Below are positions 335 through 62,830 of a stretch of DNA of 63,533 bases, in pieces. The position numbers were made by a program, and so were the translations under genes. Positions within the stretch are counted from its first letter, which is position 1. Each line of letters opens with the position of its first letter. The notes beneath the pieces were generated by a model. The model saw nothing but the letters and a program-made list of their open reading frames with translations. It did no database searches and had not been told where the DNA came from. Source of the DNA: Chiloscyllium plagiosum (taxonomy: Eukaryota); NCBI RefSeq assembly GCF_004010195.1, contig NC_057756.1, forward strand, positions 1,949,703-2,013,235, read 5' to 3'.

Positions 335-370
335 TCAATGAAATATTATTTAATGTTTCCATTGTCGTCA
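335..370 (-). pseudogene. 36-nt exon relic, xTT MET LNN ISL
   Basis: Donor gtaaga intact; acceptor ttgttttctcacat (CAG>CAT). Confidence 0.35.
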
Positions 371-2269
371 ATGTGAGAAAACAAGTAAACATACCATATG
401 AAAACATATATATCCACGCATTTAAGGAGCATAATGTATAAGTAATGCCCCCTTCCTCTACAAGCTTATTTTAATGCTTGAGAAATGTTCGTCATGAAAT
501 CAAGTGAATTTCAGTGTTCTGGAAGTGAATAAAACAGATGTTGAGAATAATGGATGATAAATCTACAGCTACAAATATAGATTGCTATTTGATTGAGAAA
601 GCATTCAAAGAGATATTTGTCGGAATAAAGCTGCTAACATAAAATGTAAAATTTCATGAGCAACATAAAAAAAAAGATATTAACTGCTGATTGCTGTTAT
701 CTAATGTTGCGTCTATATTATGCCATATGTGGAAACTTTTATATTCTATGTATGTATTTCAGAGAAAGAAGTATGGACTTGCGTTGTGTGCCTGTTTACT
801 GGATGATGAAGGCTATAATAGTGATTTGACCTATTATGTTGATGTTTACCACTGAGTTTGGAAAATTGGCAGGAATCTGTTCTACTTACATAGGATGATA
901 GAATTGTTCCAAAATGAAGACAAAGTATGCTTGATTCACCGATGCAGTTGGGTTTTGAATTTTACACATTGTCGTAGGATACTTTCGAGATACCATATAA
1001 TGAGTATCAGGCACATAAAGGTTCATGGATTTTTAAAGAAATCTTCCCGTGTCTCGATGAATATTTGCCTACTCTTAAATGAGAAGAATACCAATAGACT
1101 TCATTCAAAGAGCGGTGCCAAGAGTCCTTCTTTAAAAAATAATGAAAGAATCAAAACATCGACCAGCACTGATGCACCAGCTAAATTCTAAAGAACTTTT
1201 ATCAGAACTAGTCATCTTCTTGTGTTTATGTGCTACTGTTATTTTTAGCAAATGATTTGAAATATCAGCGGCAACAACTTTTGATTACTTAGTAACCAAA
1301 TAAACAATTATTCGGAAAGAATGCAGAAAATATAAGGATGCTTATCAGGAGTATGAACATAAAAGCAGCAGATCTGTTTGCTGATGCAGGTGAAACAATT
1401 GCACTCATGTACATAATCATATTCATGTCCTCCCAATTATCCCTGTCTGGAAGATTCAATGTCAACATTGTTTCAAGTTTCAGTTATAATCCCTCACGAT
1501 AGTAATTGAATGAAAAATATAATACAATGCTGACTGATGAAACTAAAATTGAATCACTACAGTATTTAAAACGATATGTCTCAATTTGTGGTCATACATT
1601 TTAATTTGTCCATCATGTTTTGTTTATAATCTTTTAATTTATTTCACGTGTCATGCTTCTGTCTACTTTATCAGAGCCTTATTTTCTATGAATTGGTCAT
1701 ATCAATCAAACAACCTGTCAGCAACAAAAAAAATGTTTGATAACATTTTTAGAGGTGTCATTACGAAGCACACAGAAGACTGGAAATGTTACGAAATCGC
1801 GTAGTGAACTAAAGAAGAATAGTTGTAGCATGCCTAGCGACAAATATAGCATCCTAACAAGTAAAGACAAATGATGGGCATGCAGCAATGGAGAGTGCAT
1901 GGAACGCAAGAGCAAAAACAAGAAACAAGAAGATAGTGGGCACAGCAATGGCGAGAAAAATATTAGAAAGGGAAAATACTATTGCAATCAGCCAGGTATG
2001 GAATTAATGTGAGATGATATAACCTGTAAGATAAATCATGCATTCTATAAGCAATTGGTCATCATGCTGGACACGAGGAATAATCTGAAAGATCTCAGAA
2101 AATTTCAATCTGAGGACCAGAAGTGGAAGGCAGTTGTTTTGTGGATGTACTGGTATACATTTTTTGAGAACGGAACAGTAATTCAGAAACTCGGGTAAAT
2201 ATTTTGGGGACATATATTCGAATAATAACATGACAAATAGTGAATTATGAATCAAATGCATGTCTGCAA

Positions 2270-4500
2270 TACTAAGCTATGTTAACAATAGAAGGTTGTG
2301 CAGCACTGGTCTGAGGCAAATGACGAGATTCCCTGGGTGTTCTTGGAATCGGTGGACTAAACCATATGCAAGAATTCAGAGACAACCTAGACGAGTACAC
2401 CACCAGCGTCTGGGAATACATTAGCAAGTGTGTAGAGGACTGTGCGCCAAAGAAGATAATATGCATGTTCCCCAACTCGAAACTGAATACCACTGCCTAC
2501 TGAAGACCAGGCATGCGGCATTCACGTCAGGTGACTCAAACTTTAACAGAAAATCTTAATATTGCCTCTGCAAGACCATTTGAGATGCCAAGAAGCAGTA
2601 CAGGACCAGGTTAGACACCCAAACTAATCACACCGACAGCTTGCCACATTTGACAAGTCTTACAAGATACACCAGATAATAAAATGAACCAAAACGTAAC
2701 AGTGGATAAAAGACATCCCTCCCTGATGTGTTCAATACTTTTCATGCAGCTTTGAGCAGAATGCCAGTAGCTAGGTTTTAGATACGTGCAGTGATTTGGA
2801 CGCATCTCTTCCTTCAGTCATCAATGTGGGTGAGGATTTGGTGGTCTCGGAATATTGAGTTTAGTTTATTTGGGATTATAGTGTTGAAGACGAAGCGGTA
2901 GTCGATAAGTAGGAGCCTTACATAAGTACCCCTATTATCCAGATATTCCACCCATTGCTGTCAGGCTGGGAAAATGACGTTCTTTGTGGAACTGTTTTGC
3001 TGATCAGAAAACTGTAAGGGATCGTGGCAGGCTGCGAGGTTAGAGCTGATGTGGGCTACGACTTACAACTTGAGGCACTTCCTGCTTACTGAGGTCACAG
3101 TGAATGAGCGCTAGTTGTTAAGACATGTAGCATAAGTTTTCTTGGTACTGGGATGTGGTGGTCTTCTTGAAGCTGATAAGAAATTCAGATTTTATCAATG
3201 AGAGGTTAAATATGATAGGGATTACTTGCTCCAACGGGTTTGCACGGGATCCGGGAGTACATCCAGGGTCTACATCAGGGCATATGGCTTTCCCTGGTTT
3301 ATTTTCAAGAACGTTGATGAGACGTCTACGCGTTGACTACCGCATCGCCTTCAACATTATAATCCCACCAAAAACTAATCTCAAAACTCTGAGACAACAA
3401 TTTCCTCACCCACAGATCGCAATAAATTACGAGAACAAACAACACTTCTAACACAATAATCCTCAAGTGTGGCACCCCGAAAGGATGTGTACTCAGCCGA
3501 CAATGTATTCCCTGTCTACTCACGACTCTGGAGCCAAATTTCGTATGAATGCCATAGACGAGTTCACCGATGACACCAACATTGCCGTTTGTTTTTTTTT
3601 TAGATTAGAGTAGATTACATTACAGTGTGGAAACAGGCCCTTCGGCCCAACAAGTCCACACCGACCCGCCGAAGCGCAACTGTTGTTAAACAGTAATGAG
3701 TCATGATATGGAAATGCGTTAGATGGATTTGTTTCATATTGCACGGATATCAGTCTCTCTGTCAATGTCAGAAAAACAAAATAACTGTTCATTGACTTCA
3801 GGAAGAAACGTGGAGGAACACCTTGATCGACACCAATGGACTGAGAATGAGAAATTCGCGAGCGTCAAGTTCATAGCAATGACGTTATCAAACAAACTTA
3901 CCCTTGAATTTGTACGGAAATGTGACAATCAAGAAGGCTTGACAAAACTTTTTCTTCCTCCAGACGTTTCGGAAATTCGAAACGTCTTTCAGAACCACCA
4001 CCAGGTTTGCCGTTGGAGCATTGAAACTATTCTGTCTGTATACTTAATACCTTGGTACCACAACAGCTCTCCCCAGAACGAGTAGAAACTACAGAAGGTT
4101 GTGTGCACAAGCCAGACCATTAAGAATACCGAGCTCCCATCCAAGGACTTCTATGAAAGTTCTGGTTTTGACAGAATAGCTGACAATGACATCAAACATC
4201 CTTCCACCCCTGTAATGCTTTCTTCAAATCTCTTCTGTCAGGCAGGTTACACAATCACTTCAACACACACCAGGAGGTTCAAGAACAGCGTTTTACCTGC
4301 TGTTAATAGACAGCTGAATGGACCTCTCTAATTTCAAATGTAGTTTTGATCACGTTTCCGTGCACCTCAAGTGCAACTGTAAACCTATATGCGTGTGTCT
4401 TAATAACTTATCCTCGGTATATTATTGCATTTTAATATATATTGTGCAAGACGAAAAAAAATACATTACACTTCACTCAGATACACGGAAAAACAATAAA
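2270..4500 (+). mobile_element. Degenerate Rex1/Babar-type LINE, internally rearranged (about 2770-3300 inverted)
   Basis: Translations LDEYTTSVWEYISKCVEDC..FPN and VDYRIAFNIIIP/PKGCVLS on plus, and YLDNRGTYVRLLLIDYRFVFNTII on minus, resemble Rex1 ORF/RT motifs; many stops. Confidence 0.8.
3600..3680 (-). mobile_element. 3' fragment of HE1-type SINE inserted into the Rex LINE
   Basis: Near-exact reverse complement of the tail of the SINE at 39840-39915. Confidence 0.85.
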
Positions 4501-5149
4501 TCAAATCAAAATTTGCAAATGATTAAATACTGTTTATTTTGAAAGGCCATAAAGTTGCTTAATGCATTTTTGGACAGGAAGCTTGCAATTTCATCCCAGC
4601 CTTGCTTCGGTAATATTTTCACAATGACATGAAAGACCTTGCATGTTAAATACGCTCTCGTAATTGTAATAAATGCTGCCTTAGACAGGAGCGTCCATAT
4701 CACATGATGCAAAAAATTATAATCAATAAAAACAAGTGAAAATCTGAGAAAACAACAACAAAATCTGAGAAAGCCAGATTCGGTGTGATTGGCACTACAT
4801 AATGTGATAGAGGGAGTGGTGTATCTGAATATCTTCGTGACCAATAGGGCCATTTGTTCCTGATACTTATCATCAATGTTTCTGATGACAAAGAAAGAAA
4901 TGCATAGCGAGTGCAGAACATTATATGAAATTTGTGTCCAAAGCGTTTTTTTTTACTTTTACATAAGCTGGAACAAGTGAAAATTGATCTGTAAGAGCAG
5001 AGCAAGTTAACTTTTTTGCTAATAGCCTGGACTGCAGACATGTTTATGAATCCCATATTCATTTTATGTTTTCTCATTTTTCCAATATTTACAAATGAAA
5101 CTGCTGAAGACTTGAAGAATTGCCATACAGAAAGGAAGAGACAAAATGT

Positions 5150-6310
5150 AGGATTCCCTGTCCTGTGATCTTTGAAATCAGTGTTCTTAGTAGAGGCCAT
5201 AATGCAGCGACTCGAATACACAACTCTGCCGACCATTCATTCAAACTGTGGGTCCACTCTGTGGATGACACCTTTGTCATCACTCAACAAAATAAATCTT
5301 CAAGATGATCAGTAATGTCATTGCTGGCTTAAAATTCATAGAAGAGGAGGAAATGAACAACATTCTGTCATTCCTGAATGTCACATGTTGAGCGAAGTGT
5401 CAATAGAGAATTTCAAACCAGCATCTACAGGAAAAGAAAACATTGGGACCAAATAAAGAACTACAGAAGTAGTCATCCCAACACCCACAAACGAAGCTAC
5501 TTTAGAGAAATATTTCAACGATCTACAACAGACTATTGCACGGAAGAACTACGAAGCACAGAGAAAAATCTTCTTTTCAGCATATTCACAAAGAACAGTG
5601 ACCCAATGAACTCGTACACCGATTTCCGAGCAACAAGCAAAAACAAGCAGACAAAAAGCGCCCAGATACACTAGCCGCTGTCTCCTACATCAAAAACAAC
5701 TCGAAAATGACTACCAGACGACTGAGACTGTTGCCATCACAGTAGCCCACACACCCAACAACACATTAAAACATCAGCAAATCAATACAAAAGACTGTAT
5801 AGAGACAACAAGCTAAACGAATGTCTTTTACAAAAGTCCTTGTAAGAACTGTAACGACAATCAGGCAGAAAATTAGTCACCAGGATACATGAACTTCAAT
5901 CAGCCACAAAAAGACATGAGCCACTATTGCCAGTATGCTTACATACAAATGTGGATGGATACCTCATGGATCGTACCAATACATCAATACTAGGACTAGT
6001 GAAACGGCGATATGTAGGAAAATTGTCAGAAAGAATGCATTTCAACCAGAACTCCAACAACAAACACGTCGACTTAAACTCTATCTTCCACCCTTTGACA
6101 AAAAAGCAGGAAATAGCATCTTCTACGCAGGAAATGACAACAGTACCTGAAATAACGCCACCAATCCAAGGAAACCACAAGAACCTAAATAGAAGATGGG
6201 ACATAACACCAGCCCTTCAGCGGACGCTGACTGATCATGTCAACGAGTGTGCTGGTGGAACGTCTGAAATCGTTCGTGCCATCTCAGTGAGTAAACTTAC
6301 ACCCATTCCA
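5150..6310 (+). mobile_element. Degenerate Penelope-like retroelement (RT plus GIY-YIG remnants)
   Basis: KLWVHSVDDTFVI (YVDD motif), EEEMNNILSFLNV, SIYRKRKHWDQIKNYRSSHPNTHK; decayed hammerhead-like tail near 6230-6265. Confidence 0.8.
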
Positions 6311-7934
6311 TATGTGTCTAGCAGGGTGTTATAGTTGAATATACAAGTATTTGCAATATTAATGCACGGGGTTTTTTCCTTGTAGATTGTCAAAAACCTA
6401 CACGTTTGGCCTGAGAGTCAATAAACAAAGCAGATGCAGCATTTAGTCGTATAGATTTCAGGGCAACGAACTAACCCATCATGACTATAGCTTTGTGTTA
6501 TAATGCACGGGATACTCAACTCCTGCCACCGTCTGCCAAACGTTATTATATAGTGAACAGAGCAGAGCACCGCTCTGACAGTCTGAATCCACCTGCCAAA
6601 TAACCAGACAACTCCATTCATGATTTGTATAATTTGTTGTCTCTTTGGTTGTTCTTCATGCGATTGCAGCTGAGAAAAGCAAGAACAAAAGTCCTAAAAA
6701 TATGCATTTTCAGTAAGGAAAACATGAGCAGAGAAGTTCTATACCGAACAATATTCGCGAATAGTTTGCTGTAATCAACTATTATTGATTGAGTGAAGAA
6801 AGCAGTTTATTAAAGTTGGGGAAGATGCTGGAGTCACATTTCAGGAAAAAAAATTCGTTCCAATCAATGTTTCTTAAAGAGAAATGTACACGTTACAACC
6901 TGTAATGGTGAAGAAATCGATGCTTATAATGTGCACATAAAACTTCTTGTGCCAGATGGCTTCCATTCAGTTAAGTTTGTAACTCAACTTCCATCGGTCT
7001 TGTTAATAAGTATTTCTATTTTTCATTTTACCAGGACTGGGAGCAGACAATATAGAGAAATTAATTATTACATTTGGCCCAATTCACTCAGACAATTCTT
7101 TGGTCGGTATCGGGACATAGATACTCATGTATTATTTCAAAATTTTCTTTACTCGTTATATTTATTTTTCTTTTATAGTGCTGTGCAGTTTCACCTTCAT
7201 TGATTAAGTACTCCTTCGGTCAATGATGGTTGTAGTGCATTGCAATTGACACTGATGTAAAGCGCCTGTGTTGAATTCCTTCTCAAGTTTATTAGTTTTT
7301 AAAAATTTATTTCACTTATTGCATTTCGTGACTTTGCATAGAGATATGGAACAGTTCTTCTCAAATCATACTCAGTACAAAAAAAACATAAAAATGCTCA
7401 GGTAGCATATTCAGATACAATGAAGAGTTGATGAGATGATGGCGCTCTTCAATATTGTATGTTTCCATGTTTCCGTTTAGTTCTGCTGTTTGGACAAATT
7501 TCAAGCGTGTTAGTTGACCATTAAGATATTTCTCTCGCCTTATTTGGAAACCTTGTGCTCCATCACTTGTAAATGTTTCATATCAGTTTAATAATGTATG
7601 GAAAGGCGTGAACGAATCAAATACGATCCGAAAAACAACGAACAAATCTTAACAGAATGGGAGAATGTTTGCTAGACCGGAAATATTTACTATGCTTTCT
7701 TTCAATAATGTTACCAATCCAGATAGTTTTCTCTAAAATATTTTGTTTTTGTTGTGTGTGCAGGAGTTTGTTTTAGGTCTCCAGCATCCTCAGCTTTTGT
7801 ATTATTTTAGCCAATAGCGTTTAAAATCATTTCGATAAAGTTCACCAAACAAGAAAAACCTATGCTTGCTTTGCCTTCATTTGGATTTCTAAACTCTAGT
7901 AAAATTTTCAGTAATGCGTTCATATAATGAGGTC

Positions 7935-7970
7935 TTTTCTTTCCTCTGACCCTCTGAGAATTCCATTCAT
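7935..7970 (-). pseudogene. 36-nt exon relic, DEW NSQ RVR GKK
   Basis: gtttactaaaag acceptor; donor position gacctc. Confidence 0.35.
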
Positions 7971-8422
7971 CTTTTAGTAAACGAGTTTAGAGTTGTTCAA
8001 ACGAAGCTATAGAATTTCACAATTGTATGACTTTGATATACTTTCCCGACTTTACTCGTTTCGAATGTTACTTAATTCCTGTTTATTGTTGCTCAACAAT
8101 ATTGTAACTGATCACAAATTATTTCTGAAAATTGGTTTAGATCAGATCTATGCTTGCAATGATCGTCTATGGAAATTTCCTCTCAGCGAAGATTAAAATG
8201 CTCGAATAATAGGTTACCTATTAAAATTAGCTGATTGATAGCCTCATGTCTATATTTGCCAGCATACGTTATGGACAATATAGCACAAAAAGAAAATAAT
8301 ATGTCACGTATATTTACATGTTCACATAATGCATATTTAACAAATCTCTTTCAACTTTTAGAGACGTAGTTTTCACATTTGTGTTTACAAGAAATGATGC
8401 ACTGTTTGCATGTATTACCGAC

Positions 8423-8458
8423 CTGTGTCTCTTTTCTTTCGGTTCAATGCTCTCATTT
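8423..8458 (-). CDS. 36-nt phase-1 micro-exon, (E)MRALNRKKRDT
   Basis: tttcattcatttcag|AAATGAGAGCATTGAACCGAAAGAAAAGAGACACAG|gtcggt. Confidence 0.6.
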
Positions 8459-9239
8459 CTGAAATGAATGAAACGTCTAACCATTTAGTGTTCAGTTTCG
8501 TAGCATTGCATGGTTTCTGGTAAGATGATGAAAGCCTTTCTTTACGCTCGTAGTAAATTTCTTAAAGGAATATGTGAGCAATAGTTCTGGAAACACAGGG
8601 TCATTACTGTGGCAAACCTGGATAACAGAAAAACGTTACACTTCCCATGGAACAATCAACAAATTCATAATCTGATTGTCTCAGGCGAACAAAAAGAAAA
8701 ATACACTCTTCGTTGCTAAAACATGGGGTATATCCCTTCATCAACATAAGTATAAATGAACAATCGAATAGCTCATTGCGTTATTATGATCTGTCAATGG
8801 TAAGGAAAAGCCGATTAGGAATGAAGGAAGAAAAAAAAACCTCTCCCAGAGAGTGATGAACTTATGACAGTCGCAAGTATATGGGTCTAAAGTGAGAACA
8901 GGATGCTGTGTAGGGTGAGCAGCCATGAATATTTTGTATGTTGAAGAAGGCTCGAATGAGCTGAATGATCCTTTTTTTTAAATATACGTTTCTATGAAAT
9001 TTAAGCATTTTGATTTTTTTCGTTACTATTGGACACTTCAACAAATTTATACTGGATACATTATATTCAGCAATGTGGTTCTGCTGTTAGAGTTCTTAAA
9101 TATGCCATAAATTATTTGGTGATTAATTTCTTCCTTCTATTTTTAGTTACTGGCACTATCACTTTGACTCGCCGTTCAGAAACAGATGTGTTTCGTTAAA
9201 TGTCAGTATGAAATTCTTGTTTTAAAATTTATTTTCTAC

Positions 9240-9293
9240 CTGCTCCTTCTGCTCTCTCAGTGTTCACTGGGTCCTCATTCTCCTCTTGAAATC
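9240..9293 (-). CDS. 54-nt phase-1 exon, (G)FQEENEDPVNTERAEGA
   Basis: tttttagtgtgtcag|GATTTCAAGAGGAG...GCAGAAGGAGCAG|gtagaa; every third codon begins with G. Confidence 0.6.
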
Positions 9294-9813
9294 CTGACAC
9301 ACTAAAAATAACTTAGTGCTACGTTGTTCACTACTCTCCCAATGGAAAAAAGCACAGCCTCTCAAAATCTAACATGGTTCCTTCCAGGATCGGTGATGTT
9401 TCTCTGGCATCACAACATGCTCACCAGGGCAACGCGCTTCTATTAAATACATTGATAAATTTAATCAAGTGGAGTATATGTGGGACTTCTTATTTGCAAA
9501 GATAATCACAGTTTGTTTCACCTGTTTGCTATGTACTGCACTCTATCATTTTTTTAGGTTCAATGAGAATGCATTTCTACTGAACACTGGCCCGTATTTA
9601 ACCAGAAAAGAAGCTATGCTGGCAATATTTAAAAATACTTTGAGGTTTATAGACGATAACTTTCCAGTGACTTTCGATTGTTCTTCAAAAATGATGCAAC
9701 TGGGAAAATCAGTGTTCATTTATTTCCAAAGGAATGTAATATGAAAGTATATATGTTTGCAACTGAAGGAAACATTGCCACGATGTGGAGTTAATTCCAT
9801 TCTCTGGACTCAC

Positions 9814-9840
9814 CATCTTCGCCAATCTTTGTATTGATAT
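9814..9840 (-). CDS. 27-nt phase-1 micro-exon, (D)INTKIGED
   Basis: tttctttacataatttag|ATATCAATACAAAGATTGGCGAAGATG|gtgagt. Confidence 0.65.
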
Positions 9841-10212
9841 CTAAATTATGTAAAGAAACATCAGGAGGAATAAATGACACTTGCAATAATTCAAGAAATA
9901 AGTCGAGAGAGCAACTTCACACACGGTTTGCACCTCACGAAGGTAACAGTTGTCAATCTGAAATAATTGGATGCAAATTCTCCATGAAACAGAAGTTAAA
10001 TTGTTCGATATGAATCTTTGAGAAAATAGAACCACATTACATCGCGATCCTGCAATTTTTGCTTTTTTGGCATTCATGGAATTGAGTAACCGGTGCGCTC
10101 CACTACTCACGATGGTAATGAGAACTATCACACAAATATTTACAAGAGCTATTGTATCAAACTCATGTCTGCTTCTTGATTTGACAAGAACATGCCGGTC
10201 TTCTTTGATTAC

Positions 10213-10239
10213 CTGTCGTAATTGATCTCTTCATTCGTT
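10213..10239 (-). CDS. 27-nt phase-1 micro-exon, (E)RMKRSITT
   Basis: ctgttcaatttcag|AACGAATGAAGAGATCAATTACGACAG|gtaatc. Confidence 0.6.
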
Positions 10240-12759
10240 CTGAAATTGAACAGATGCCATGAGCGCAGGACATGGATGTTTTTCATTTACCGAGCACCTT
10301 ATTCTCGTTACAGAATTTCTTTAAAATTCAGTCTTGAAGATGATAAAAGGAAATGCTTAATGTCATCACATTGCTAAGTGCTAAATCGTTTGTATTCTGG
10401 AAAAGCTAATATGCACTAATGTAAAACAATGAGCTATGATATCAATCTTTTGTATTGCGCACACATTTAGAAAATTAAATGAGAAAATGTAAAGAAAAGT
10501 GGTCTATTTGCAAATATCGTACTGGAATATGAACAGTTCTCTTGCTGGAGCACTGCTACATTTTGTAACTTGCATCTAATAGGCAACAACTCAGAGACTG
10601 GAATTACTCATCAATAGCTGCAATTCGGTATTCCACAATTTGTGCACCATCCACAATCAACATGTTTAAAGTTATATCACGTTCAACGCTATTGATTCTT
10701 TTTTGAAAAAAAATACACACATCACTTACGAGTAAAACAAATGCCTCATATTACAGCTACATCATTAATAAAGTTGAATAATGCAGCTTTTTAGCTATGA
10801 TACTATCATGAAAGTTGAGCATATAAGGTTGTAAGGCAAATATTATATGGAATAAAATGCAAGCCAAACATTTAATTGGACATTCATGCTTCTTGAATTC
10901 ATTCTGTCGTTTAATTAAACCATGACTGCCAAGTAATGTGTATTGTTATTTGTTTGAAAAGTTCGACGATTTTGATTTCGCATCCCTGACCTTATAATTC
11001 TTGATTTTGATTTTATTTCCATGTGTACTCAACTAAGGAAGAAAATGTACAGGAGTACCGAGATAAGTGTATAATATTGTTGCTAACTTAGATAAAAGGA
11101 GCAAGACATAGAATCTTAAGAAGACCAAAAGATAGAACAACGTCAAAATTTAACATTGAAGCAATTGTAACATAGTGCAAAGCAAATGCAATAAAGCTGA
11201 AGTTATACTTTGCAGATCTTCTCCGTTTTAAGTAGAAAATAAAGAAATAAAGCTGAAAATTCGTTTCAGTATTTGTTATGGGGTTTTTAGGAATTACCTT
11301 GCAACTAGGAGTTCGTTAGGAGTGCAGACTGGGTCGAGAGATCACCATATACCACCAAAACATCGTGTTTGGCCAAAAGGTGTTCCCCACGCCAGATGCA
11401 TGAGCCACCAGGTTGGGCCAAAAGGCTACTCCGCAAGAGTGAGGGTCCACCGTGCGGTGCCTTGATGGGCCACGAGGCTTCTCTCCAGGATGGAAGATGG
11501 CCACGACATCTTCTGGGAGATTGGCAAACCGCCAGACAGGTAGGCCTGCACATTAAGGTGGGAGACCGCCTTGCTCTCCTAGAATACTGCCTCAAAAGAT
11601 ATATGCTGAGTCCGAAGTTTGGAGTCATTGGCTGGGCATTAGAGGATTTGTGTCCATGGCCAGGGGAAGAACAAGCTGAAAAGTGAAGAACAAAAAGAGG
11701 GAGAAGAAGGAAATGGACCGAATGGACGAGTTTTGTGTTAAGCGTCCTTCTCCACTGCTTCTTGGTTAATGCTGAGCACCATTCACTCTGAACATTCTTT
11801 TCTGATTAAATTTCAACCTCGCTTTAGCAGCATCTCATGTAAAACTCCGAGATATTAAACACTGACAAAAAATCTCATTCGTCCGATTTAAACTGCATCA
11901 GTTATTTCAATGCGTGATTGCATTGTCAATCAAATATTGCCTATGAACACTTAATTTTTGATAAGCAAAAACCTTTCAACATTCAAATAATAAATCTAAA
12001 TTGAAATAATCACAGCAATTTTCACACAAACCGTAGACTGCACCTGGAGTTCCAGTGTGTTTGCAGTCTAACCTGCCATCAACGATCAAATCTTCCGGAG
12101 TAATATTAATGTTTCGCTCAATTTTAATACGCTTTGCAGCCTCAAGTAATGTGATGTTTAAAACCTTCGATGAAATTGATCTAATCATTGTGGAAAACCT
12201 GAATAATTCCACTGTACAGTAGTCAATATCTTTTAGATGCATTGTCTATGCACAGTTATTATTCTTCGCATCATGATGTTCTATTCATAAACAATCCTCT
12301 CCAAAGCCCATTGGTCCCTTCTGAAATGTTTATGTATGATAGAAAGCAACAATTTAGTCCCTGATGCAACATAGTGAACAAATATCCACTTATCTTAATA
12401 TAGACACTTCTTCCAGGAAGAATAAACGATTCAGTGCTTCCAGACTACACGATAACTGAGTAGGAACGTGACTGATGTCAAATTAATTTCGAAAGAAAAC
12501 CCTACTGTTCATCTATCAATTATTTCATAACAAAAACCTAATCTAGCTCTCTCATAATCACAGCAATGAAATATAAAAAAGTTAACGAAGCAAAGCTATT
12601 CCGACCAAAGTCTGAAGATCCTGATAACAACAAAAAAAGACTGTGAAAGCTTGAAATCGAAAATATAACCAGAGATTGCAGGGCAAGATTAGCAAAGCTG
12701 ACAATGCAGGATCTGAAAAGTCCTACAGAAAGTTATATGCACAGCCCAGATCTTCATGA

Positions 12760-13025
12760 AAGCCAACATCCTATCCGTTGTGTCCACTTACACTTTATTT
12801 CTGCAGAAAGCATGCCAAGATCAATAAACACTCCTCTCATTTCGTGAATACTATTCCACAAACACTTCCGTGCTGGAGAAGATTAACAAGCTTGAAAACA
12901 CTGACGAACGTTTTAAACAACCGCTTCCTTTGGACTGTTATCAGGCTGCTGAATAGAGCTCGCTAATTTCAATCATAAAGTTGATCTTGTGTTTGTGCAC
13001 CTCCTGTTAAGCTGTTTTCTTGTTT
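12760..13025 (+). mobile_element. Rex/Babar LINE 3' end, continuing at about 14413-14520 after a Penelope insertion
   Basis: Similar to the Rex 3' end at 4150-4500. Confidence 0.55.
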
Positions 13026-13029
13026 TCCT

Positions 13030-14404
13030 AATTCTGGATTAGTGGTGCTGAAAAAGTACAGCAGTTCAGGCAGCATCCGAGGAACAGTAAAATCGACGTT
13101 TCTGGCAAAAGCCCTTCATCAGGAATACAAGCAGAGTGTCTGAAGGGTGGAGAGATAAGTGAGAGGAGGATGGGGGTGGGATAGGTGAGTGGGGGAGGGG
13201 ATGAAGGTGATAGGTCAGGGAGGAGGGTGGAGTGGATAGGTGGAAAAGAAGATAGGCAGGTGGAACAAATCATGGGGACAGTGCTGAGCTGGAAGTTTGG
13301 AACTGGGATGAGGTGCGGGAAGGGGGAAATGAGAAAACTGTTGAAGTCCACATTGATGCCCTGGGGTTGAAGTGTTCCGAGGCGGCATATGAGGCGTTGT
13401 TCCTCCAGGCGTCGGGTGGTGAGGGAGCGGCGGGGAAGGAGGCTCAGGACTCCCACTCCGCGACAGACTGGAAGAGGGAGTTGAAATGTTGGGACACAGG
13501 GCGGTGTGGTTGATTGGTGTGGGTGTCCAAAATATGTTCCCTAAAGCGCTCTGATAGTAAGCGTACAGCCTCCCCAATGTAGAGGAGACCCATGACTACC
13601 TGGTCCATGCCTCCCTACAACATACCCTCCTGTCCTGGCACCTTCCTCTGCCACCGCAGGAATTGCAAAACCTGCGCCAAAACCTCCTCCCACACCTCCA
13701 TCCAAGGTATTAAAGGAGCGTTACACATCCATCAAAGCTTTACCTGCACATCCACCAATATCATTTATTTTACCCGTTGCTCCCGTTGCGGTCTCCTCTA
13801 CATTGGGGAGACTGCACGTTCCCTGGCAGAGCGCTTTAGGGAACATCTCTGGGACAGCCGCACCAATCAACCACATGCCCTGTTGCCCAACATTTCAACT
13901 CCCCCTCCCAATCTGCCGAGGACATGGAGGTCGTGGGCCTCCTTCACCACCGCTCCCTCACCACAAGACGCCTGGAGGAAGAACGCCTCATCTTCTGCCT
14001 CGGAACACTTCAATCCCAGGGCATCAATGTGGACTTCAATAGTTTCCTCATTTCTCCTTCCCCCACCTCACCCCAGTTCCAAACTTCCAGCTTAACACTG
14101 TCCCCATGACTTGTTCTACCTGCCTATCTTCTTTTACACCTATCCACTCTACACTCCTCCCTGACCTATCTCCTTTATCCTCTCCCCCACTCATCTATTG
14201 TACTCTATGCTACTTTCTCCCCACTCCCACCCTCCACTCATTTATCTATCCACCCTTCAGGCACTCTGCCTGTATGCCTGATGAAGGGCTGTTCCCAAAA
14301 CGTCGATTTTATTGCACCTCCGATGCTGCCTGAACTGCTGTGCTTTTCCAGCACCACTAATCCATAATCTGGTTTCCAGCATCTGCAGTCATTGTTTTTA
14401 CCTA
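13030..14404 (+). mobile_element. Relatively young Penelope-like element: GIY-YIG 3' part with an inverted upstream copy
   Basis: CTSTNIIYFTRCSRCGLLYIGETARSLAERFREH; arms about 13032-13590 and 13795-14365 are inverted; flanked by gttttcct at 13022-13029 and 14405-14412. Confidence 0.9.
13095..13122 (-). ncRNA. Minimal hammerhead ribozyme motif in Penelope terminal repeat
   Basis: CTGATGA-agggc tttt gcca-GAAAC-GTC on minus; the plus-strand partner at 14278-14304 has GAAA>AAAA. Confidence 0.6.
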
Positions 14405-15127
14405 GTTTTCCTCAGTCCGTCTAAGCACCCTATGATCTATGTACTCTTATTTCCGATGACTGCTCTGCTGGCAAAACAGAACCTTTCACTATTCTTAGTA
14501 GCTATGACAGTAAATCAATCAATGAATGACTTTATCTGCAAAGTGAAAAGTGAGGTTTTTTTAGTGTCCACTAACACTTCTTCAAAGCAGAGCTGTCTTT
14601 TGAAGTTGGATCACTGGACCTGAAACGTGAACTCTGCTGTCACACCAGAAATACTGCGAAACCTGCTGACCTTTTCAAACAATTGCTGTTCTTGTTGGTT
14701 ATCAAGATATAGTTTCGGGCACATAGAATGCAGCAATTGCAAAACTTTACCCAGTGCCATTTCTGTAGGTATTGTGATCTAATTGTGTTCCTCCCTCCCT
14801 TCCAATTAATGATTTCACGCCCCCTTCAGTGTTCATTCTTAAAGTGTTTCCATTTATTAATTTATTATTTTAATGGATTATACACAAACCTTAAATCGAG
14901 TTCATCCATAATGATGGATCTGCCATTCCATTATGTCTTCCTGGAAAATACCTATTCTCCCTCTTGTGAAATGTTGCTTTATTACTTTCTGCACTGTCTC
15001 AACGAAACAATCATTTAATCTAATGTGTCAGTCGATGGTAACCAATTTTGTGTTATGCTCTTGCTTTGTTGCGTTTTCAAATCCAAAATATTTTCTTCTC
15101 ATTACACTTGAGTTTAAAAAATGTAGC

Positions 15128-15163
15128 TTTCGAAGATCTGCTGAATTTCCTTGTCCTGTACTT
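15128..15163 (-). pseudogene. 36-nt exon relic, EVQ DKE IQQ IFE
   Basis: gttgtatag acceptor; donor position gctaca (GT>GC). Confidence 0.35.
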
Positions 15164-15366
15164 CTATACAACTATTATTTCTTAAAATATGAGTGTCTAA
15201 TGATTCAGCATGGTTTATAAAATGGTTATGAACTGTATCACCGAGGTTCTTCGACTGGAAACTTGATGTGAGGATTTTCATCCTGAATTTGAGGATATAC
15301 TTCAAATCTATCTATATTATTCACAATGTTCGTGTATCGTGCGAACCATTTCAAATGTATTCTTAC

Positions 15367-15393
15367 CAAATGAATTTCAATAATGTCCCTTGA
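15367..15393 (-). pseudogene. 27-nt exon relic with intact AG/GTAAGA but phase-1 TGA
   Basis: catttcgttag|TCAAGGGACATTATTGAAATTCATTTG|gtaaga. Confidence 0.4.
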
Positions 15394-15529
15394 CTAACGA
15401 AATGCTTGTCATTTGATTCAATGCTGCCATTGAGAAGGAAACCTTTGGCTTTTCTGCATTTGCAAATACCTCTAATTCAACCACCAAGATTTAAATTCCA
15501 AATTTACAGAAGAAATGACTCATATTTAC

Positions 15530-15565
15530 CTGTCTCTGCAAGCTTTCGTTTCAGTATTTCAATCT
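15530..15565 (-). CDS. 36-nt phase-1 micro-exon, (E)IEILKRKLAET
   Basis: attgctttcaag|AGATTGAAATACTGAAACGAAAGCTTGCAGAGACAG|gtaaat. Confidence 0.65.
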
Positions 15566-18092
15566 CTTGAAAGCAATTTTTAAAAAAGTTTCAACGAAGA
15601 TGAACAAAGTATCACTACCAAGTGTAACAGGATTGTATCTGTACACAATTGTTGTAGGATGAATCATGCTTCTTCTAAGTTGTGTTATTCTGTGAAATTG
15701 TTACAATTGTAATGATTGACACATGGTTGTTGGAAGGCTTCTCACAATATTGATGGCGTCGGAACGCGATGGCATATTCTATACATTAGAAAATAAAATA
15801 TACAAATACACACATATAATGCATCTGCTGGTAAAATGCATGTTGATCTAAATTTCAGAGTGGGTGAATACCACTAGTTGCGAGGAGTCGATCTTTAAGC
15901 ATGAAGCGAGCTGCAGCAGATGGAAAATTGTTTTGTCATAGAGTCATGGATTGATGCAGTGCAGAAACAGGCTATTTAGTCCAAAATGATCAATGCCAAA
16001 GAAATTTTTTAAATGAAATTATTCTGATTTGCCTGCGTTTGATACAAACCGAAACTTTTGATATGTGTAATGCTGGTTACAGTGAATAAGATTGGAGGAA
16101 GAGGAGAATTGAATATTTCATATTCTAAAGTAAAGATGTGTTTGGGATGGTAACAATGTTTCAAAGTGCTGCTGAAAACAATTGTGAGAAAGACAGAAGC
16201 AAGCATCACCATGCAATTTTCTGATTTCTTCGTGACAGGGGATGTAGTCAGATACAATGACTTGTTCAACAGCTCTCAATGGTGAAAAATTTAATTGATA
16301 CAGTCAGGCCAACAGCGAAAAGCTGTTCAATAAGTCGGTAAGGCAGACGGTAAGGCAGATAATTTTGGAGAATCAGCAACCACGATAATTTCTGAATGTA
16401 ATCTCAGTAAGCAAGTCAGAAGATTCTTCTAGTATGTTTCAAATGCAACTTGAGCACTATGTCAGCTTCCTAATTTACGGAAACTTGTAAACATTCATTC
16501 ACAACATGTATAAACAAATATAAAAAAAAATCAAATGGGGTAAACCCAAAATTGTAACTGTAGAAAAGTTGCAGCGTAAGGATCGTAGAACCGGGCTAAA
16601 ATTTCAAAAATTGTACAGTTTTTTTTCAGGAGGCTGGATAATCTGATATCCCTAAAAAGCAAAAAAAAAAGACGCATTTGTGCAATAATTGATATCCCTG
16701 GAATAAATAAAATAGTGGCAGTTTGGCACTTTGAACATTGTTGATGAAAAATAATTTTAGGGCAATTGTATATATAAACATTGATGGAAACAGCATACAC
16801 ATTAAATTCCGCATGTCCATTGTGTATAGCATTTCTTCTGCACTGAAGCATAGAAGAAAACACATTTTATATTTCGTTGCCTTCTTGGCCGTGTCAAGGC
16901 TGTGCTCCATAACAGGGTGAATTCTCGCCCGGCAAGGTGTAGTGCATTGAACAATACGAGCAAGTTTGCATTGAGTTTACAGCTATCAATGTTCACCAAG
17001 TATAATGCTCACTGCATGATTTCAATTTGTTTACATTTTTGCCAAACTAATCTCACCGCCAGTTTCACACGTTATAACTCTATGAAGCAATAGTCGTTTC
17101 AGTGCTTTACATTCTTTGCTAAAATTAGGCTCAATATTTATGCAATTCAACGTATTTACTCTCCACCCACTGTGGACCATATTTTCCAATTATTGAAATT
17201 TTATTATAACTCATGTTGATTTTCACCCCAGCCTGATATTTTGATACTTAATGAAACTCATTATGTCCTTCTCAGATTAGCGTGTTATCCTTTCACCGCA
17301 TTTTCCACCTGGATTTGCAATTGAGTAAGTTTTGTAGAAGCTTACTGAAAATGTTTTGTATTAAACAATCAGTATTTTGCTTCCGGTGATTGAAACACAT
17401 CTAAAACTGACAAGTGTCGGGAGTCTGATAAATTTCCATATGGCTGTTCTATATACATGACATAGAGTAGTTAAATGAATAGTATGGGGCTGTTGGCTTC
17501 GGAAATGCATTTGTTTGCCACAAAAGCAAGAGAGAATGCCATCCTCTGAAATGCAACGTTTCAGTCATCAATGTATTCAAATTTGTTCACTCCACGCAGG
17601 AAAGAAATGACAAAAACTCTGAGCTGATAGCAGTAAGCGACAAGATTCAGTCTAGTTAGCTTAACACAAATAAGTTTAAAGAGATAAAATTTAAAAAAAA
17701 TCATGAAAATATTTTGGTTCATCCAAAAACTGGCAAATAATAAAACGGTGATAAAGATAGATTAATTGGTTTGAGTTTGAAGCAAAGCATTGGATCGATT
17801 ATGGCATTTTTAGCAGCAGTTACAGAGGTTTTTAAAGGAAATGTTCCATCAACTCACAAGTAATGAGGAACTGCAGCTCATTCCCTATCCTGATACTGTT
17901 AAGTCAGAGCTTTAATTGTTTTAAAAAAAGTACAAAGTGGCTAGCTGCACGTAGAAATAAGCTGTCTGCATTCATATTTTGAATGGAAAACTTGAAATTT
18001 TCTTGCTGAACTTGTGAAATGTCAACATGAATTACATATGCCTTGGCGATTCTATACTCCCGTGCGCAAATGGAATAAAATAATGAACATAC

Positions 18093-18119
18093 CTATTTCC
18101 TTTGCCAGTATTGACTTCG
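18093..18119 (-). CDS. 27-nt phase-1 micro-exon, (A)KSILAKEI
   Basis: aatgtttacag|CGAAGTCAATACTGGCAAAGGAAATAG|gtatgt. Confidence 0.7.
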   Translation of the reverse strand, partial: RSQYWQRK

Positions 18120-18932
18120 CTGTAAACATTTTTAAATAACTTTTATAACATTTGTATAAATGATTTCTTCCTGATTACCTTAACAAGTTAAAAAATTATT
18201 TGCATAAGATAAGGCAATTGAGTAATTAAGAAGAACAATTATGCTCATATAAATATCTGATCTGCGCTCTAAATCTCTACCATTATGATATGTCGACAGA
18301 CTAATCTTCTTTGCAACTCATCTGGCATGATGAGTAAGAAAAAATTCTGCGAAATAATTCTCTAAGGCTACATCGATACCATATTCAAAGCATGCGGAAA
18401 GTCATTATGTTACTGCAAAGGAACATTTGGATAAAGCATGCATTCTATAATATTTGAACTATTTCATGCTTAATTTGCAAGTAAGTACAGAAAATTGCAG
18501 CTGTGACTTTCCTTCGAGGAAATCTGTTCAAAAATCATCGGGATGATTTTATTTGGCATTGAGTTTGTTTCAAAGAAAAGTTTATATCTAATCTCAACTC
18601 AAGCTTTTCTATGATCAAAGTTCAAACCATACGGAAAGCAGAAATTGAAAAAAAGAATGTTCGTAGCCAAAAAAACGAAGGGATGTATAAACTCATCGAA
18701 TGAGTCACGATTATTATGGGTTCACTTATCCTGAAATAGAATACTCAGTCGAACGTTCATGAGGTGAAAATGTAATTTAATAAATTTTGAATCAGTAAAA
18801 CAAATGAAATATTACTTTTGTTAAAGAAGTAAAATAAGAAGCATGGATATGACAATGTATTGGCTTATTGCAAACCAGGTTGAAGATGAATTAGGAATAT
18901 ACTCATCATAGGAAATGAACTGAAACATTCAC

Positions 18933-18968
18933 CTGTCAATCCGACCGAAATATCCAGAAAGCTCATGA
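18933..18968 (-). CDS. 36-nt phase-1 micro-exon, (V)MSFLDISVGLT
   Basis: tcttactcagttcag|TCATGAGCTTTCTGGATATTTCGGTCGGATTGACAG|gtgaat. Confidence 0.55.
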
Positions 18969-19941
18969 CTGAACTGAGTAAGATACACATTGCACTTTGT
19001 ATCTGTTACATATGAGGTGGTCTGTGCCATGAGTTAATAATCAGTGAAATTAGGTTTTATACGTTGCATTCATAATTCTTTCGCAGTTCTGTGTACAAGG
19101 GAAGTCCCATACTAAATTTCAATTTACAAAATATTTTTCTGTATGCAGTCGTGGAATCTGGGCTTAATTGGCTGTACCAGGATATATCTTCATTCTATTT
19201 CACCATGAGTGTGGCAGCAAGTTGCCTTCTGCAGTATTGAAAAAGAGGTAATGCTGCTAAGATTGGTTTTTCATGATTTCGCTTGAGCAGCATCATAGAA
19301 AACGACATTCTGCTTACTTGCTCATTGCACGTCTTGCAGAGTAACTTGCAAATTGTGTCAATGTCCTGCAAGATGGAAGTGGTTAAGATTTTTGGAATTT
19401 TATGCCTGTAGCATGTGATAGTTGCACTCTGCGGCTGTTGTGCATCTATGTTGGATAAAGTGACTATTCATGCTATAGCAATAAGGTAGTTGCTTCAGAT
19501 CTCTGAGATTGATCAACAGCTGAATTTGAATTAACGTCCTCCATAGCATCATTCCTACTGAGAGTGGTGTTTATGATTAGATATATTGCAAATGTCTTCA
19601 CTACAAGAACCGCTAATGTATTTTGATTTTGTGTATTTTTGGAAGTACGATAGAATGTCTCTTTAACAGTCCTATCACGTAACACGATAAAGACATCATT
19701 ATTTTTTTCTGCCTGCCAATATAACAGCTATATAAGGAAGTGTCTGCTTTTTCAGTTTTCGCTCTTATACCCCTTCTTAGAATTGAAAATAAGTGTATTA
19801 TTTTTTTCTCTGATGCGACAAAAAAAGGGTTAAACTTGAGTAAAACCGAATGTGAGTGATACTCAATGTGTCCGGTGGCATAAAACAGAAATTACTTGAT
19901 TTGAAATCACAGCAGGTCTATCAGCACCTTTCGGACAAACA

Positions 19942-20190: not shown

Positions 20191-20217
20191 CTGACGCATG
20201 AAGAAGAGCATCAAGTT
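20191..20217 (-). CDS. 27-nt phase-1 micro-exon, (E)LDALLHAS
   Basis: gttatccttttaag|AACTTGATGCTCTTCTTCATGCGTCAG|gtagga. Confidence 0.65.
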
Positions 20218-24922: not shown

Positions 24923-24949
24923 CTGATATTAGCTTGGGTGGGGTTTCAC
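24923..24949 (-). CDS. 27-nt phase-1 micro-exon, (G)ETPPKLIS
   Basis: gtttattctccag|GTGAAACCCCACCCAAGCTAATATCAG|gtaatt. Confidence 0.65.
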
Positions 24950-25556: not shown

Positions 25557-25583
25557 CTCCGTTTGTTAAACTTTTATGGTACT
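25557..25583 (-). CDS. 27-nt phase-1 micro-exon, (E)YHKSLTNG (weak splice context)
   Basis: gattactgcag|AGTACCATAAAAGTTTAACAAACGGAG|gtctaa. Confidence 0.4.
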
Positions 25584-26085: not shown

Positions 26086-26112
26086 CTTTCTCGAATTTAT
26101 CGAGTCTGTCTT
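26086..26112 (-). CDS. 27-nt phase-1 micro-exon, (Q)DRLDKFEK
   Basis: ttttcaccatcattcag|AAGACAGACTCGATAAATTCGAGAAAG|gtaaga. Confidence 0.7.
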
Positions 26113-26813: not shown

Positions 26814-26849
26814 GGGCTTCTTTGATCTGTTTTTTCAAGTTTTCTAGTT
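26814..26849 (-). CDS. 36-nt phase-1 micro-exon, (E)LENLKKQIKEA
   Basis: ttgttttctcgtgtttcag|AACTAGAAAACTTGAAAAAACAGATCAAAGAAGCCC|gtgaga. Confidence 0.7.
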
Positions 26850-34950: not shown

Positions 34951-35866
34951 TATTGGTAACCTTCTTGTTCAATACATGCTTGCATTGGAAAATGTTTGGG
35001 AAACATTTTCATGACTTAATCAGGAACACGTTAGGACAAATCTACGCATGGATTTCAGAAGTTGAGAATGATCTGCCTGAAGTTGATCAACTTTAATGTT
35101 GGTTAACAATAAAATGTGTTGTTACAACGCAGAATGAAAACAGCTAATTCCCACACCTCTGCACCCCATGTGTTTCAAACTAATTTTGATTTCATTATTC
35201 ATCCAAGATGTCAAGTGAAAAAAGCGCACCTATTGCTTTATCGAGTAGCAGTCTGTCTGTAAATCAGAAAATATTGCACATTACATATGTTCAAATCATT
35301 TGCATCTTAATATATGAAACTGGTTATTATCCACGGGCAAAAAAAACTGGATCTCAACTCTCTGGTGATAGCAATTTTGAATATTTAATATAATTTGGAG
35401 CAGATTTATATTCAAAATCAAAGATTTCACAATTGTTAGTGATCAACTTGGAGCCGTGATTGAAAGTCAAGTTTCTGCTGCTAATGAGATACTGCATCTT
35501 TATTTTTAAATAACATCAGTAAGACCGGATATCTCGTTGTTAACTATTTGCATCAAGGAGACTAAAGAATCAAGTCGTTGAACTAAAGGAAAATAAAACG
35601 TGCTTTATATTTTCCTTGTTGTTGCTTTTCAATGTCTCATGTTTGATGCAACGCAGGTAAGTCTGTTCCATTATTCCTTTAATAAACCATTTTCACTTTT
35701 CATGCAGTGAACATTTGAAGTCCAGTTTTGCCTCATGGCATATTGGATCATTTGACTTGCGTGCTTGAGGAAATAATATGGTAATCAAAATGGTCTTATC
35801 AAGTGTTAAATGGAAAATACATGACACTGCAATTATAGAGCGTTTTGCAATCTAGTACTTACTCAC

Positions 35867-35893
35867 CGTCTGATTTGAATTTTCCATCTTGTT
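35867..35893 (-). CDS. 27-nt phase-1 micro-exon, (E)QDGKFKSD
   Basis: tttcttttttattcag|AACAAGATGGAAAATTCAAATCAGACG|gtgagt. Confidence 0.7.
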
Positions 35894-37800: not shown

Positions 37801-37836
37801 CCATGCTCTTTATAAGCTCTGTCAGTTTGTTCACCT
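37801..37836 (-). CDS. 36-nt phase-1 micro-exon, (E)VNKLTELIKSM
   Basis: gttattttcatttcag|AGGTGAACAAACTGACAGAGCTTATAAAGAGCATGG|gtgaga. Confidence 0.65.
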
Positions 37837-43712: not shown

Positions 43713-43713
<1 letters not shown>

Positions 43714-43804
<91 letters not shown>

Positions 43805-50092: not shown

Positions 50093-50110
50093 TTCCTACC
50101 ACTTCTTCTT
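50093..50110 (-). CDS. 18-nt phase-1 micro-exon, (E)EEVVG
   Basis: gcttttatttcag|AAGAAGAAGTGGTAGGAA|gtatgg. Confidence 0.45.
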
Positions 50111-51262: not shown

Positions 51263-51289
51263 CTAACTCTTTTTCAAGGATTGATTTGC
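51263..51289 (-). CDS. 27-nt phase-1 micro-exon, (G)KSILEKEL
   Basis: ctttgtacttttatctag|GCAAATCAATCCTTGAAAAAGAGTTAG|gtaaat; paralogous to exon 18093-18119. Confidence 0.7.
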   Translation of the reverse strand, partial: ANQSLKKS

Positions 51290-54626: not shown

Positions 54627-54629
54627 AGA

Positions 54630-61496: not shown

Positions 61497-61523
61497 TCAA
61501 ATCTCGAATTAATGCATCCAAAT
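61497..61523 (-). CDS. 27-nt phase-1 micro-exon, (D)LDALIRDL
   Basis: gttttctttcaattgcag|ATTTGGATGCATTAATTCGAGATTTGA|gtaaga; paralogous to exon 20191-20217. Confidence 0.65.
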
Positions 61524-62803
61524 CTGCAATTGAAAGAAAACAAAAAAAAAAGTTTACACACAAGTTTTCACGAAGATTGTAGAATTCGTATGACAACTTG
61601 TGTACTGACTAGACAAGGAAAATACTTGACAATCAATCAGAAAATTAAACCTCCCCAATTGGTTTAGATGTTGGCTGCGCTGCCATATGAGGACGGTCAT
61701 AGAAATATTGACAGATCGTTGACATACCTCTGAAGAATAAAAGGCTCGCTGGTTGGTACATTTTTATTTGGAACTGATCAGAAGTTTATACTTAGAGAAG
61801 GTATTCCTTCATGCACTCAGCTGCAAGGAATAGATAACTTTTCTGAATTACAAAAAATAACAGATAATTTATTTTGAGATTTGAATGATTCATTTGGACA
61901 CTCAGACAGTAGAGAAGCCTAAGAATTGTCAAGAATATAGAGCTATAGATTGTCAGCCGTTATGTAAGTTCAAGACAAAAATCGGCAGATTTCTCCACAT
62001 GAAAACATGAATGGATATGGTGGCAGTGCAGGAAAATAACTCCAGTACAGTACGTCAGCGATGTTGTATATTAGTGAAAGATCAGGCGTGATTGCGTGAA
62101 ATATCTTTTCATGGTTCCTTGGTATATTCCTGCAATGTTTCCACAATTCTGACGAATTCAGATTGCTGTATTGGTCGCCTAATAAGTTTCCATTCAGTCA
62201 GACTTTATGGACTTCCACCCTTTTCCAAATCAATCTGTTCAGAGATATCATTCCACACATCTGAAGCAAGCAGGTATTGAACCCTTCTGAATACGCCATG
62301 TATTTCCTGTCAATCATAAAACACATTGCACACTGCTATTTTAAATACACTGAATTTGCAAATTTACTTCTAGTTCTTATAACGAACAAAAACATGGAGA
62401 GATATGCATCAAACAGGGAAATGAAAATATAATTACATATCTGGCAACTCTTCTAATTTTATTGCTCTAATATACAACCACAAAGGCACATTTAAAATGG
62501 AGATGTTATTCAATGTGAAACATTGACTTTTATTTTCCTAGTTCATTCATTACATCTTGCACATTAATATGAATGGTTATATTAATTGGGATTTTCTTGG
62601 TTTTGGGATTGTCATCGGATTTTGGTCCATTGGATAGTTCACTCATCACAAATACAATTAGTAGCTCTTCTGTGAATTTCCTTTCCTATTACCCTCAGGT
62701 ACTAACTTGTCCAGTCAAAGCCAAGAAAATAAGCAAATTCCCCATAAAGGAGAGTGATGGTGGTGATGTAGTTATGACTTAAATAGTAATAAATGATGAT
62801 TAC

Positions 62804-62830
62804 CTGGATCGTAATAAGTTTGGCAATGAC
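62804..62830 (-). CDS. 27-nt phase-1 micro-exon, (G)HCQTYYDP
   Basis: ttcttgtccaatag|GTCATTGCCAAACTTATTACGATCCAG|gtaatc. Confidence 0.55.

Follow-up and report, generated by a model that had tools for sequence, protein, structure and literature searches.

In the collagen genes, exon sizes are multiples of 9 nucleotides (nt), mostly 45, 54, or 108, and in titin, a domain-rich gene, the PEVK segment has longer exons, whose product is a disordered spring rich in proline; the micro-exon genes (MEGs) of flatworms, for their part, are spliced combinatorially. According to one account (PMC10526429), schistosome MEGs are small genes for short secreted flatworm proteins, with exons of 3–81 bp and introns of up to 5 kb. 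This family is the closest described architecture to the locus reported here, which belongs to the shark Chiloscyllium plagiosum and was followed up from a stretch of 63,533 nt on contig NC_057756.1 (C47:1949703-2013235; hereafter the window), which we read together with 100 kb to its right and 150 kb to its left (313 kb in all), while genome-wide searches took in 3.56 Gb in 101,977 contigs. Judged from its sequence, the window quite probably sits inside a very large minus-strand coding locus of 27- and 36-nt phase 1 exons, which would be under purifying selection and have a coiled-coil-type product. Negative positions below lie to the left of the window, and positions with a plus sign are in window numbering, including past its right end.

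The likeness to the schistosome MEGs is one of architecture. In both, the coding sequence appears to consist nearly entirely of very short symmetric exons set among long introns, and any subset of these exons would splice in frame, whereas the shark locus is that of a vertebrate, covers at least 285 kb, uses only two exon sizes, and would encode a regular helical repeat. The closest vertebrate analogies may be the collagen genes and titin PEVK. With the collagens, the shark locus would share long arrays of duplicated exons in multiples of 9 nt, each exon holding whole structural repeats of a fibrous protein; in contrast, its exons are without Gly-X-Y (Gly 1.3%), have a period of 3.5 rather than 3 residues, and measure 27 and 36 nt. 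As in titin PEVK, a segment seems to have grown by the duplication of in-frame exons or exon groups, with a length adjustable by exon skipping, but the shark exons are one third the size and predicted to be helical, and the 313 kb yielded no domain exons beside them.

Exon sizes, reading phase, and duplicated exons

The initial annotation had joined 18 segments into the interior of a symmetric-exon gene that open reading frame (ORF) finding would overlook. All 18 were located on the minus strand, each preceded by AG and followed by GT, with sizes of 18 (one), 27 (eleven), 36 (five), and 54 nt (one). Their joint openness in phase 1 only was likewise reproduced, since the 549 joined nt hold no stop at exon offset 2 as against 19 and 8 at the other two offsets; taken singly, 18 of 18 are open at offset 2 (phase 1-1), whereas only 5 are open at offset 0 and 11 at offset 1. 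Bare AG..GT intervals are frequent, however, the window having about 200 for each size on either strand, and 649 of them over six sizes are open in phase 1-1, so that choosing 18 is easy and the joined openness alone is weak evidence.

A sharper view was obtained when acceptors and donors were scored with simple log-odds matrices, and AG..GT intervals of 9–99 nt with a summed score of at least 8 were counted as strong. In the window, the minus strand holds nine strong intervals of 27 nt and seven of 36 nt versus one and none on the plus strand, with other sizes averaging 1.3. Over the 313 kb, these counts are 34 and 19 on minus versus 3 and 4 on plus, and the other 89 sizes average 6.7 (maximum 12). 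The first 263 kb alone give the same size and strand picture, and within them the 18-, 45-, and 54-nt classes show no excess of strong intervals. An excess at multiples of 9 nt, for which a test had been proposed, is thus seen for 27 and 36 nt but not for 18, 45, or 54 nt. Sameness of the length distributions on the two strands had been named as grounds for giving up the gene; here, the 27/36-nt excess is confined to minus, and the proposal withstood this check. Moreover, 32 of the 34 strong 27-nt minus intervals are open at offset 2, versus 19 and 15 at the other offsets. When a composition score, trained on 37 well-flanked exons, was added to the splice score, the resulting total reached at least 10 for 47 minus versus 3 plus candidates in the 313 kb.

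All 27-nt and all 36-nt open intervals were also compared by peptide similarity, and chosen pairs were checked codon by codon. The pair at -32356 and -54299 has eight identical residues and six differing codons, all synonymous, and that at -46507 and -62956 has an identical octapeptide and three differing codons, again all synonymous. Five synonymous and two non-synonymous codon differences separate 51263 from 18093, and two of each separate -47336 from -63636. The intron flanks (130–140 nt) of nine out of nine pairs gave alignment scores within the range of 30 shuffles each. Among the top pairs, those with poor splice scores were transposon copies on both strands; the well-flanked pairs that stand out are on minus. 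The synonymous changes and the unalignable flanks are, as we read these sequences, the independent part of the pair evidence. Since neutral sequence is saturated and amino acids are kept in the duplicates, purifying selection in this frame, and with it coding exons, would follow. We regard this pair comparison as the strongest evidence for real coding exons and as a partial substitute for a cross-species test, and consider it very likely indeed that these are real coding exons under selection.

Architecture and extent of the array

All supported exons are phase 1-1, in that each starts at the second base of a codon and stops after the first base of the next, and owing to this symmetry any subset of them splices in frame. 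Their donors are strong and GTRAG-like (G at -1 in 39 of 43, A or G at +3 in 39, A at +4 in 32, and G at +5 in 29), while the acceptors show a T-rich tract with C at -3 in 32 of 43. The usual first base of an exon is G, and here it is A in 35 of 43, so the junction codon is mostly GAx and encodes Glu or Asp; these codons usually read G|AA, G|AG, or G|AT. As in described micro-exon genes, only intervals with lengths in multiples of 3 (27 and 36 nt) are in excess, the introns are much longer, and the joined phase 1-1 frame is without stops. Intronic splicing-enhancer motifs showed no clear enrichment near the exons.

A module recurs loosely in four places, in the order 36-nt exon, LxQCxK exon, exon ending in Asp-Pro, LDxLLxxx exon, K(S/A)xLxKxx exon, and 36-nt exon, and farther downstream xKLNKKDx exons of 27 nt recur among 36-nt exons. 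Two 27-nt exons within +116750..+116911 flank a 108-nt intron that is open in frame, so its retention would leave the reading frame intact; a similar pair at +83010 and +83178 has a 115-nt intron containing a stop.

Exons of these types were read directly from +136573 to -148735, a distance of 285 kb, and an xKLNKKDx match at C47:1728728 (about -221 kb) would probably bring the array to at least 357 kb. The LD-type exons are confined to about -63 kb to +61.5 kb, and no KLNKKD-type exon is found before -85 kb, all of them lying from there downwards. Neighbouring kept exons are separated by about 0.1 to 22 kb, with gaps of 15–22 kb in which no exon was detected. The initial annotation had called for extension into the flanks to reach terminal exons: the exon types do continue beyond both ends of the window, but no terminal exon came to light in the 313 kb. 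Its larger proposal, which places the window inside a very large gene of symmetric phase 1 micro-exons, is supported by the excess in size and strand, by amino acid conservation in exons beside saturated introns, and by an array of at least 285 kb that runs past both window ends.

Genome-wide, a degenerate pattern that combines the LD-type exon and its splice sites gave eight matches, four of them the known C47 exons and four scattered, as against two for a reversed control. For the LxQCxK pattern, C47 held all five matches, of which four belong to the array and the fifth lies at 0.57 Mb; the control gave one. This fifth match (C47:570670-570700, plus strand) has fair splice sites and is separated from the array by 1.3 Mb and by its opposite orientation; no further clear micro-exons were found in the 20 kb around it. 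The looser xKLNKKDx pattern gave 18 matches versus 33 for its control; five of the 18 are on the C47 minus strand, and among these only the one at 1728728 is new. Two others, at C37:20962075-20962108 and 20983100-20983133 (minus strand), are only 21 kb apart, which for two of 18 genome-wide matches is unlikely by chance, and a paralogous micro-exon array may therefore lie on C37.

Exons within the window and their predicted product

The candidate exons of the window are given below, each with its splice or total score where relevant and, as background, the number of minus and plus candidates in the 313 kb that score equally well or better.

61497..61523, minus strand: 27-nt phase 1-1 micro-exon of the LDxLLxxx type, copy 1 of 4; total 14.2 (25 minus, 2 plus)
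51263..51289, minus strand: 27-nt micro-exon of the K(S/A)xLxKxx type; score 13.5; paralogue at 18093
37801..37836, minus strand: 36-nt micro-exon, hydrophobic at positions 2, 5, and 9 (a-d-a class); score 17.3 (0 plus)
35867..35893, minus strand: 27-nt micro-exon; donor 10.7, total 15.4 (0 plus)
35230..35256, minus strand: 27-nt micro-exon absent from the initial annotation; score 14.0; similar exon at +102747
26814..26849, minus strand: 36-nt micro-exon with the top score of the window, 20.6 (0 plus); single-copy depth in a DNA run
26086..26112, minus strand: 27-nt micro-exon; donor 10.3, total 16.9
24923..24949, minus strand: 27-nt micro-exon, the sole proline-bearing one among the supported exons of the window; splice score 14.9 (3 minus, 0 plus)
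20191..20217, minus strand: 27-nt micro-exon of the LDxLLxxx type, copy 2; score 11.8; matched by the genome-wide pattern
18093..18119, minus strand: 27-nt micro-exon of the K(S/A)xLxKxx type, copy 2; score 8.9; backed by its paralogue at 51263
15530..15565, minus strand: 36-nt micro-exon with a weak pyrimidine tract; donor 8.5, total 10.7; fits the 36-nt class pattern
10213..10239, minus strand: 27-nt micro-exon with moderate support; score 9.6 (48 minus, 4 plus)
9814..9840, minus strand: 27-nt micro-exon; donor 10.2, total 12.5
8423..8458, minus strand: 36-nt micro-exon; score 13.6; 36-nt class pattern
62804..62830, minus strand: possible 27-nt exon with Asp-Pro at its end; weak acceptor, total 1.3, within the plus-strand background
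50093..50110, minus strand: possible 18-nt exon; score 5.1 (91 minus, 32 plus); its size class is without excess
9240..9293, minus strand: possible 54-nt exon; score 7.4 (60 minus, 13 plus); its size class is without excess
18933..18968, minus strand: doubtful 36-nt segment with a good donor and a hydrophobic composition unlike that of the others; score 5.2 (89 minus, 32 plus)
25557..25583, minus strand: AG..GT interval that is probably present by chance; acceptor -1.1, donor -0.5, total -4.7 (572 minus, 529 plus)

Thirteen of the 18 segments put forward in the initial annotation are thus supported, but the other five (25557, 18933, 50093, 9240, and 62804) are not distinguishable from chance, and about five of the 18 listed exons are probably, or at least possibly, chance picks. 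Eleven of the 18 have a total of at least 10 (61497, 51263, 37801, 35867, 26814, 26086, 24923, 20191, 15530, 9814, and 8423), and 18093 and 10213 fall just short of it, the former with a paralogue. The exon at 61497 is also one of the only four matches on C47 to the LD-type pattern in the genome-wide search. For the segment at 62804, the sole support is that an LD-type exon follows directly downstream, an arrangement shared with the module at -62240/-62956. Position 335, from which the gene had been said to run, marks no exon, as nothing convincing is present in window 1–8422, and the next exon downstream of 8423 is at about -233, beyond the window. A good exon at 35230–35256 had, on the other hand, been overlooked. 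At position 24946, inside the exon at 24923–24949, a DNA run carrying the same species label has T to C at all of a depth of 10.6; read on the coding strand, a Glu codon would become one for Gly.

As regards the product, fourteen 36-nt exons picked by splice score alone (and so blind to composition) have Leu, Ile, Val, Met, or Phe at position 2 in 86%, at position 5 in 93%, and at position 9 in 79%. Position 5 of these same exons is Leu in all but one of the 14, Ala or Thr predominate at position 12, and most of the intervening residues are charged. The spacing is that of an a-d-a-d heptad pattern. With the 47 best exons joined (1377 nt, 0 stops), hydrophobic periodicity is found at 3.5 residues (z = 4.1), as against z of 2.5 at 4.0 residues, 0.7 at 3.0, and -1.3 to 0.7 over periods of 2–3 and 5. 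In the best register, the a/d contrast is 0.417 versus 0.294 ± 0.022 in 200 shuffles (maximum 0.385). The joined exons are rich in Lys (16.6%), Leu (15.7%), Glu (13.1%), Asp (9.4%), and Gln (7.6%) and poor in Gly (1.3%) and Pro (0.9%). Together, the detected exons show the hydrophobic a/d spacing and the scarcity of Gly and Pro of a coiled coil. A collagen was considered and rejected, there being neither Gly-X-Y nor excess periodicity at 3.0 residues.

From this, we infer that the product may be a long α-helical rod or tether of the coiled-coil type, and judge the chances of a coiled-coil structural role to be evenly balanced. In terms of register, a 27-nt exon adds nine residues (a shift of 2) and a 36-nt exon twelve (a shift of 5), so that one of each adds 21 residues, or three heptads. 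The inclusion or skipping of such 27+36-nt pairs could alter the length of the chain with the heptad register unbroken. Cysteines are occasional and restricted to particular exon types, and modular extracellular proteins typically have exons of phase 1-1; taken together, these make a secreted, disulfide-linked fibre a possibility, in which cysteine-bearing exons might cross-link chains. A secreted or lumenal product we nevertheless consider rather unlikely.

As for its origin, the coding sequence, as far as seen, would consist only of 27- and 36-nt exons several kb apart, which probably arose by repeated tandem duplication of multi-exon modules. Such duplications would be old, with introns that no longer align and exons held by purifying selection. 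If so, the locus would be a clean example of a heptad-based fibrous protein grown by module duplication, as the collagens did.

Competing explanations and genomic setting

Were the 18 segments mere picks from hundreds of open AG..GT intervals in 63 kb of AT-rich DNA (G+C 34–44%), the abundance of such intervals noted above and the five segments within the plus-strand background would be accounted for. This does not explain an excess that is limited to 27 and 36 nt on one strand (34 + 19 versus 3 + 4), nor identical peptides with six and three synonymous differences beside unalignable introns, nor exon-type patterns found essentially only here in 3.56 Gb; for the set as a whole, chance is already refuted, and we give it next to no credence. 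A once-functional array that is now silent or decaying, as a unitary pseudogene or a set of rarely used exons, would fit the failure to obtain RNA support, the several expected module members that are missing or have weak splice sites, and the single base, with its change of codon, at which the DNA run departs from the assembly within exon 24923. The synonymous-only divergence speaks instead of long-lasting constraint after duplication, the donors are still strong and GTRAG-like (G at -1 in 39 of 43), and the 47 best exons are without a stop, though partly by selection of the intervals, and such decay is in our view improbable.

Several smaller micro-exon genes in tandem, with separate starts and ends, could also be present, given that the array is heterogeneous (LD-type exons being limited to one range and KLNKKD-type exons to another), is interrupted by 15–22 kb gaps, and has possible further copies on C37 and at 0.57 Mb on C47. 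Yet no recognisable start exon, no terminal exon, and no clear promoter at the CpG-rich spots could be found, and all exons share one strand and one phase. We hold such a cluster to be unlikely, if not markedly so, and lean slightly towards one giant gene over several. There is, furthermore, an appreciable chance, still well short of even, that this is a well-known vertebrate gene (calpastatin-, triadin-, or golgin-like) that went unrecognised and already figures in public shark annotations. Single exons fall below the 40-residue minimum for a protein search, and the LDxLLxxx exons are reminiscent of calpastatin, with its amphipathic helices, and of the paxillin LD motifs. Against this, the literature, with subscription journals outside the coverage, yielded no description of a vertebrate or shark gene of this build, and the 54-residue frame formed by two exons and the 108-nt intron gave two candidates with shared words, neither of which scored, among proteins of 96–2000 residues, which is weak evidence. 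The shark calpastatin gene itself is located elsewhere (C2:53.02–53.09 Mb), with exons of 84, 96, and 126 nt read at offset 0.

Calpastatin had been considered for its Leu/Asp helix and for one ...TPP... exon, and was rejected. Like the shark locus, it has a repeated module with a short amphipathic Leu/Asp helix and many small exons, but it differs in contig and in exon layout (84–126 nt at offset 0). All eight genome matches to Pfam PF00748 are on C2 and none on C47, and within C2:53019568-53092445 the exon that matches PF00748 positions 91–124 is present in eight copies, about 10 kb apart, each with ...IPPDYR.... Mammalian calpastatin has four inhibitory domains, half the number of these exon copies.

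Several points weigh against the preferred reading, that of a very large coding locus of 27/36-nt exons under selection. The splice matrices were made by hand, with untrained frequencies, rather than taken from a trained model; the composition score is somewhat circular, its 37 training exons being among those ranked; and the pairs were picked by peptide similarity, which favours few amino acid changes. The lack of stops in the joined exons is partly built in, only open intervals having been kept, and among the 19 strong 36-nt intervals the 13 that are open at offset 2 do not exceed the number open at offset 1. The module order is repeated only loosely, and several expected members were not found. 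In the 313 kb, where ORFs of at least 40 codons were scanned by composition, no exon above 36 nt stands out from background; neither a first nor a last exon was found, and there is no CpG-island promoter, two of the four CpG-rich spots overlapping transposon ORFs. A scan for first exons of the signal-peptide type gave two minus hits, both of them one pyrimidine tract read from two alternative ATGs, and two on plus as well. This picture is compatible with one gene, with several genes, and with a dead locus alike. Among the sequencing runs listed as containing the stretch, none is recorded as RNA. Four data sets (a pair of single-cell RNA runs, a contig set that is possibly RNA, and a DNA run) were placed on window 8400–28399, where the RNA and possibly-RNA depth is appreciable only on repeats (about 12.4–14.4, 21.1–21.7, 24.4–25.1, and 27.1–27.7 kb) and thus uninformative on expression. 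No joint at the candidate exons was among those listed, and one RNA run had no placement at all in these 20 kb, which is equally uninformative.

If transcribed as one unit, the locus would be among the most extreme exon architectures in vertebrates, with dozens of 9- and 12-codon exons, and no others, over hundreds of kb. Its 27-nt exons, in introns averaging several kb, would then also be a stringent test of spliceosomal exon definition, and the locus as a whole a test for gene finders that work from ORFs and homology. That it is a shark counterpart of the flatworm MEGs, as an all-cassette locus of more than 350 kb with combinatorial coiled-coil lengths and registers and a possible paralogous array on C37, is an idea that we put forward as speculative and unlikely. 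What the locus does supply is a set of paralogous exons indicative of purifying selection independently of cross-species data, together with concrete exon pairs for RT-PCR.

Transposon remnants (reverse transcriptase, endonuclease, and GIY-YIG) account for the long ORFs both in the window and in its flanks, and of 22 long ORFs compared with Pfam, nine had matches, all to these same three kinds. A search of Rfam gave zero matches within the window. An (ATCT)25 microsatellite at window 43705–43873 directly adjoins a run of 69 N, and a C-rich tandem repeat with a period of 36 (window 63414–63533) adjoins 2,784 N (63534–66317) that start at the right end of the window; exons of the locus could be hidden inside this latter run, which may be an assembly gap. 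Very high-copy repeats are located at window 12400–14400, 21070–21740, 24400–25070, and 27080–27740, with a summed contig depth of up to about 700,000 in the DNA run versus 10–30 elsewhere. The first of these includes a plus-strand ORF (13583–14095) with a weak match to GIY-YIG, as in Penelope-type elements.

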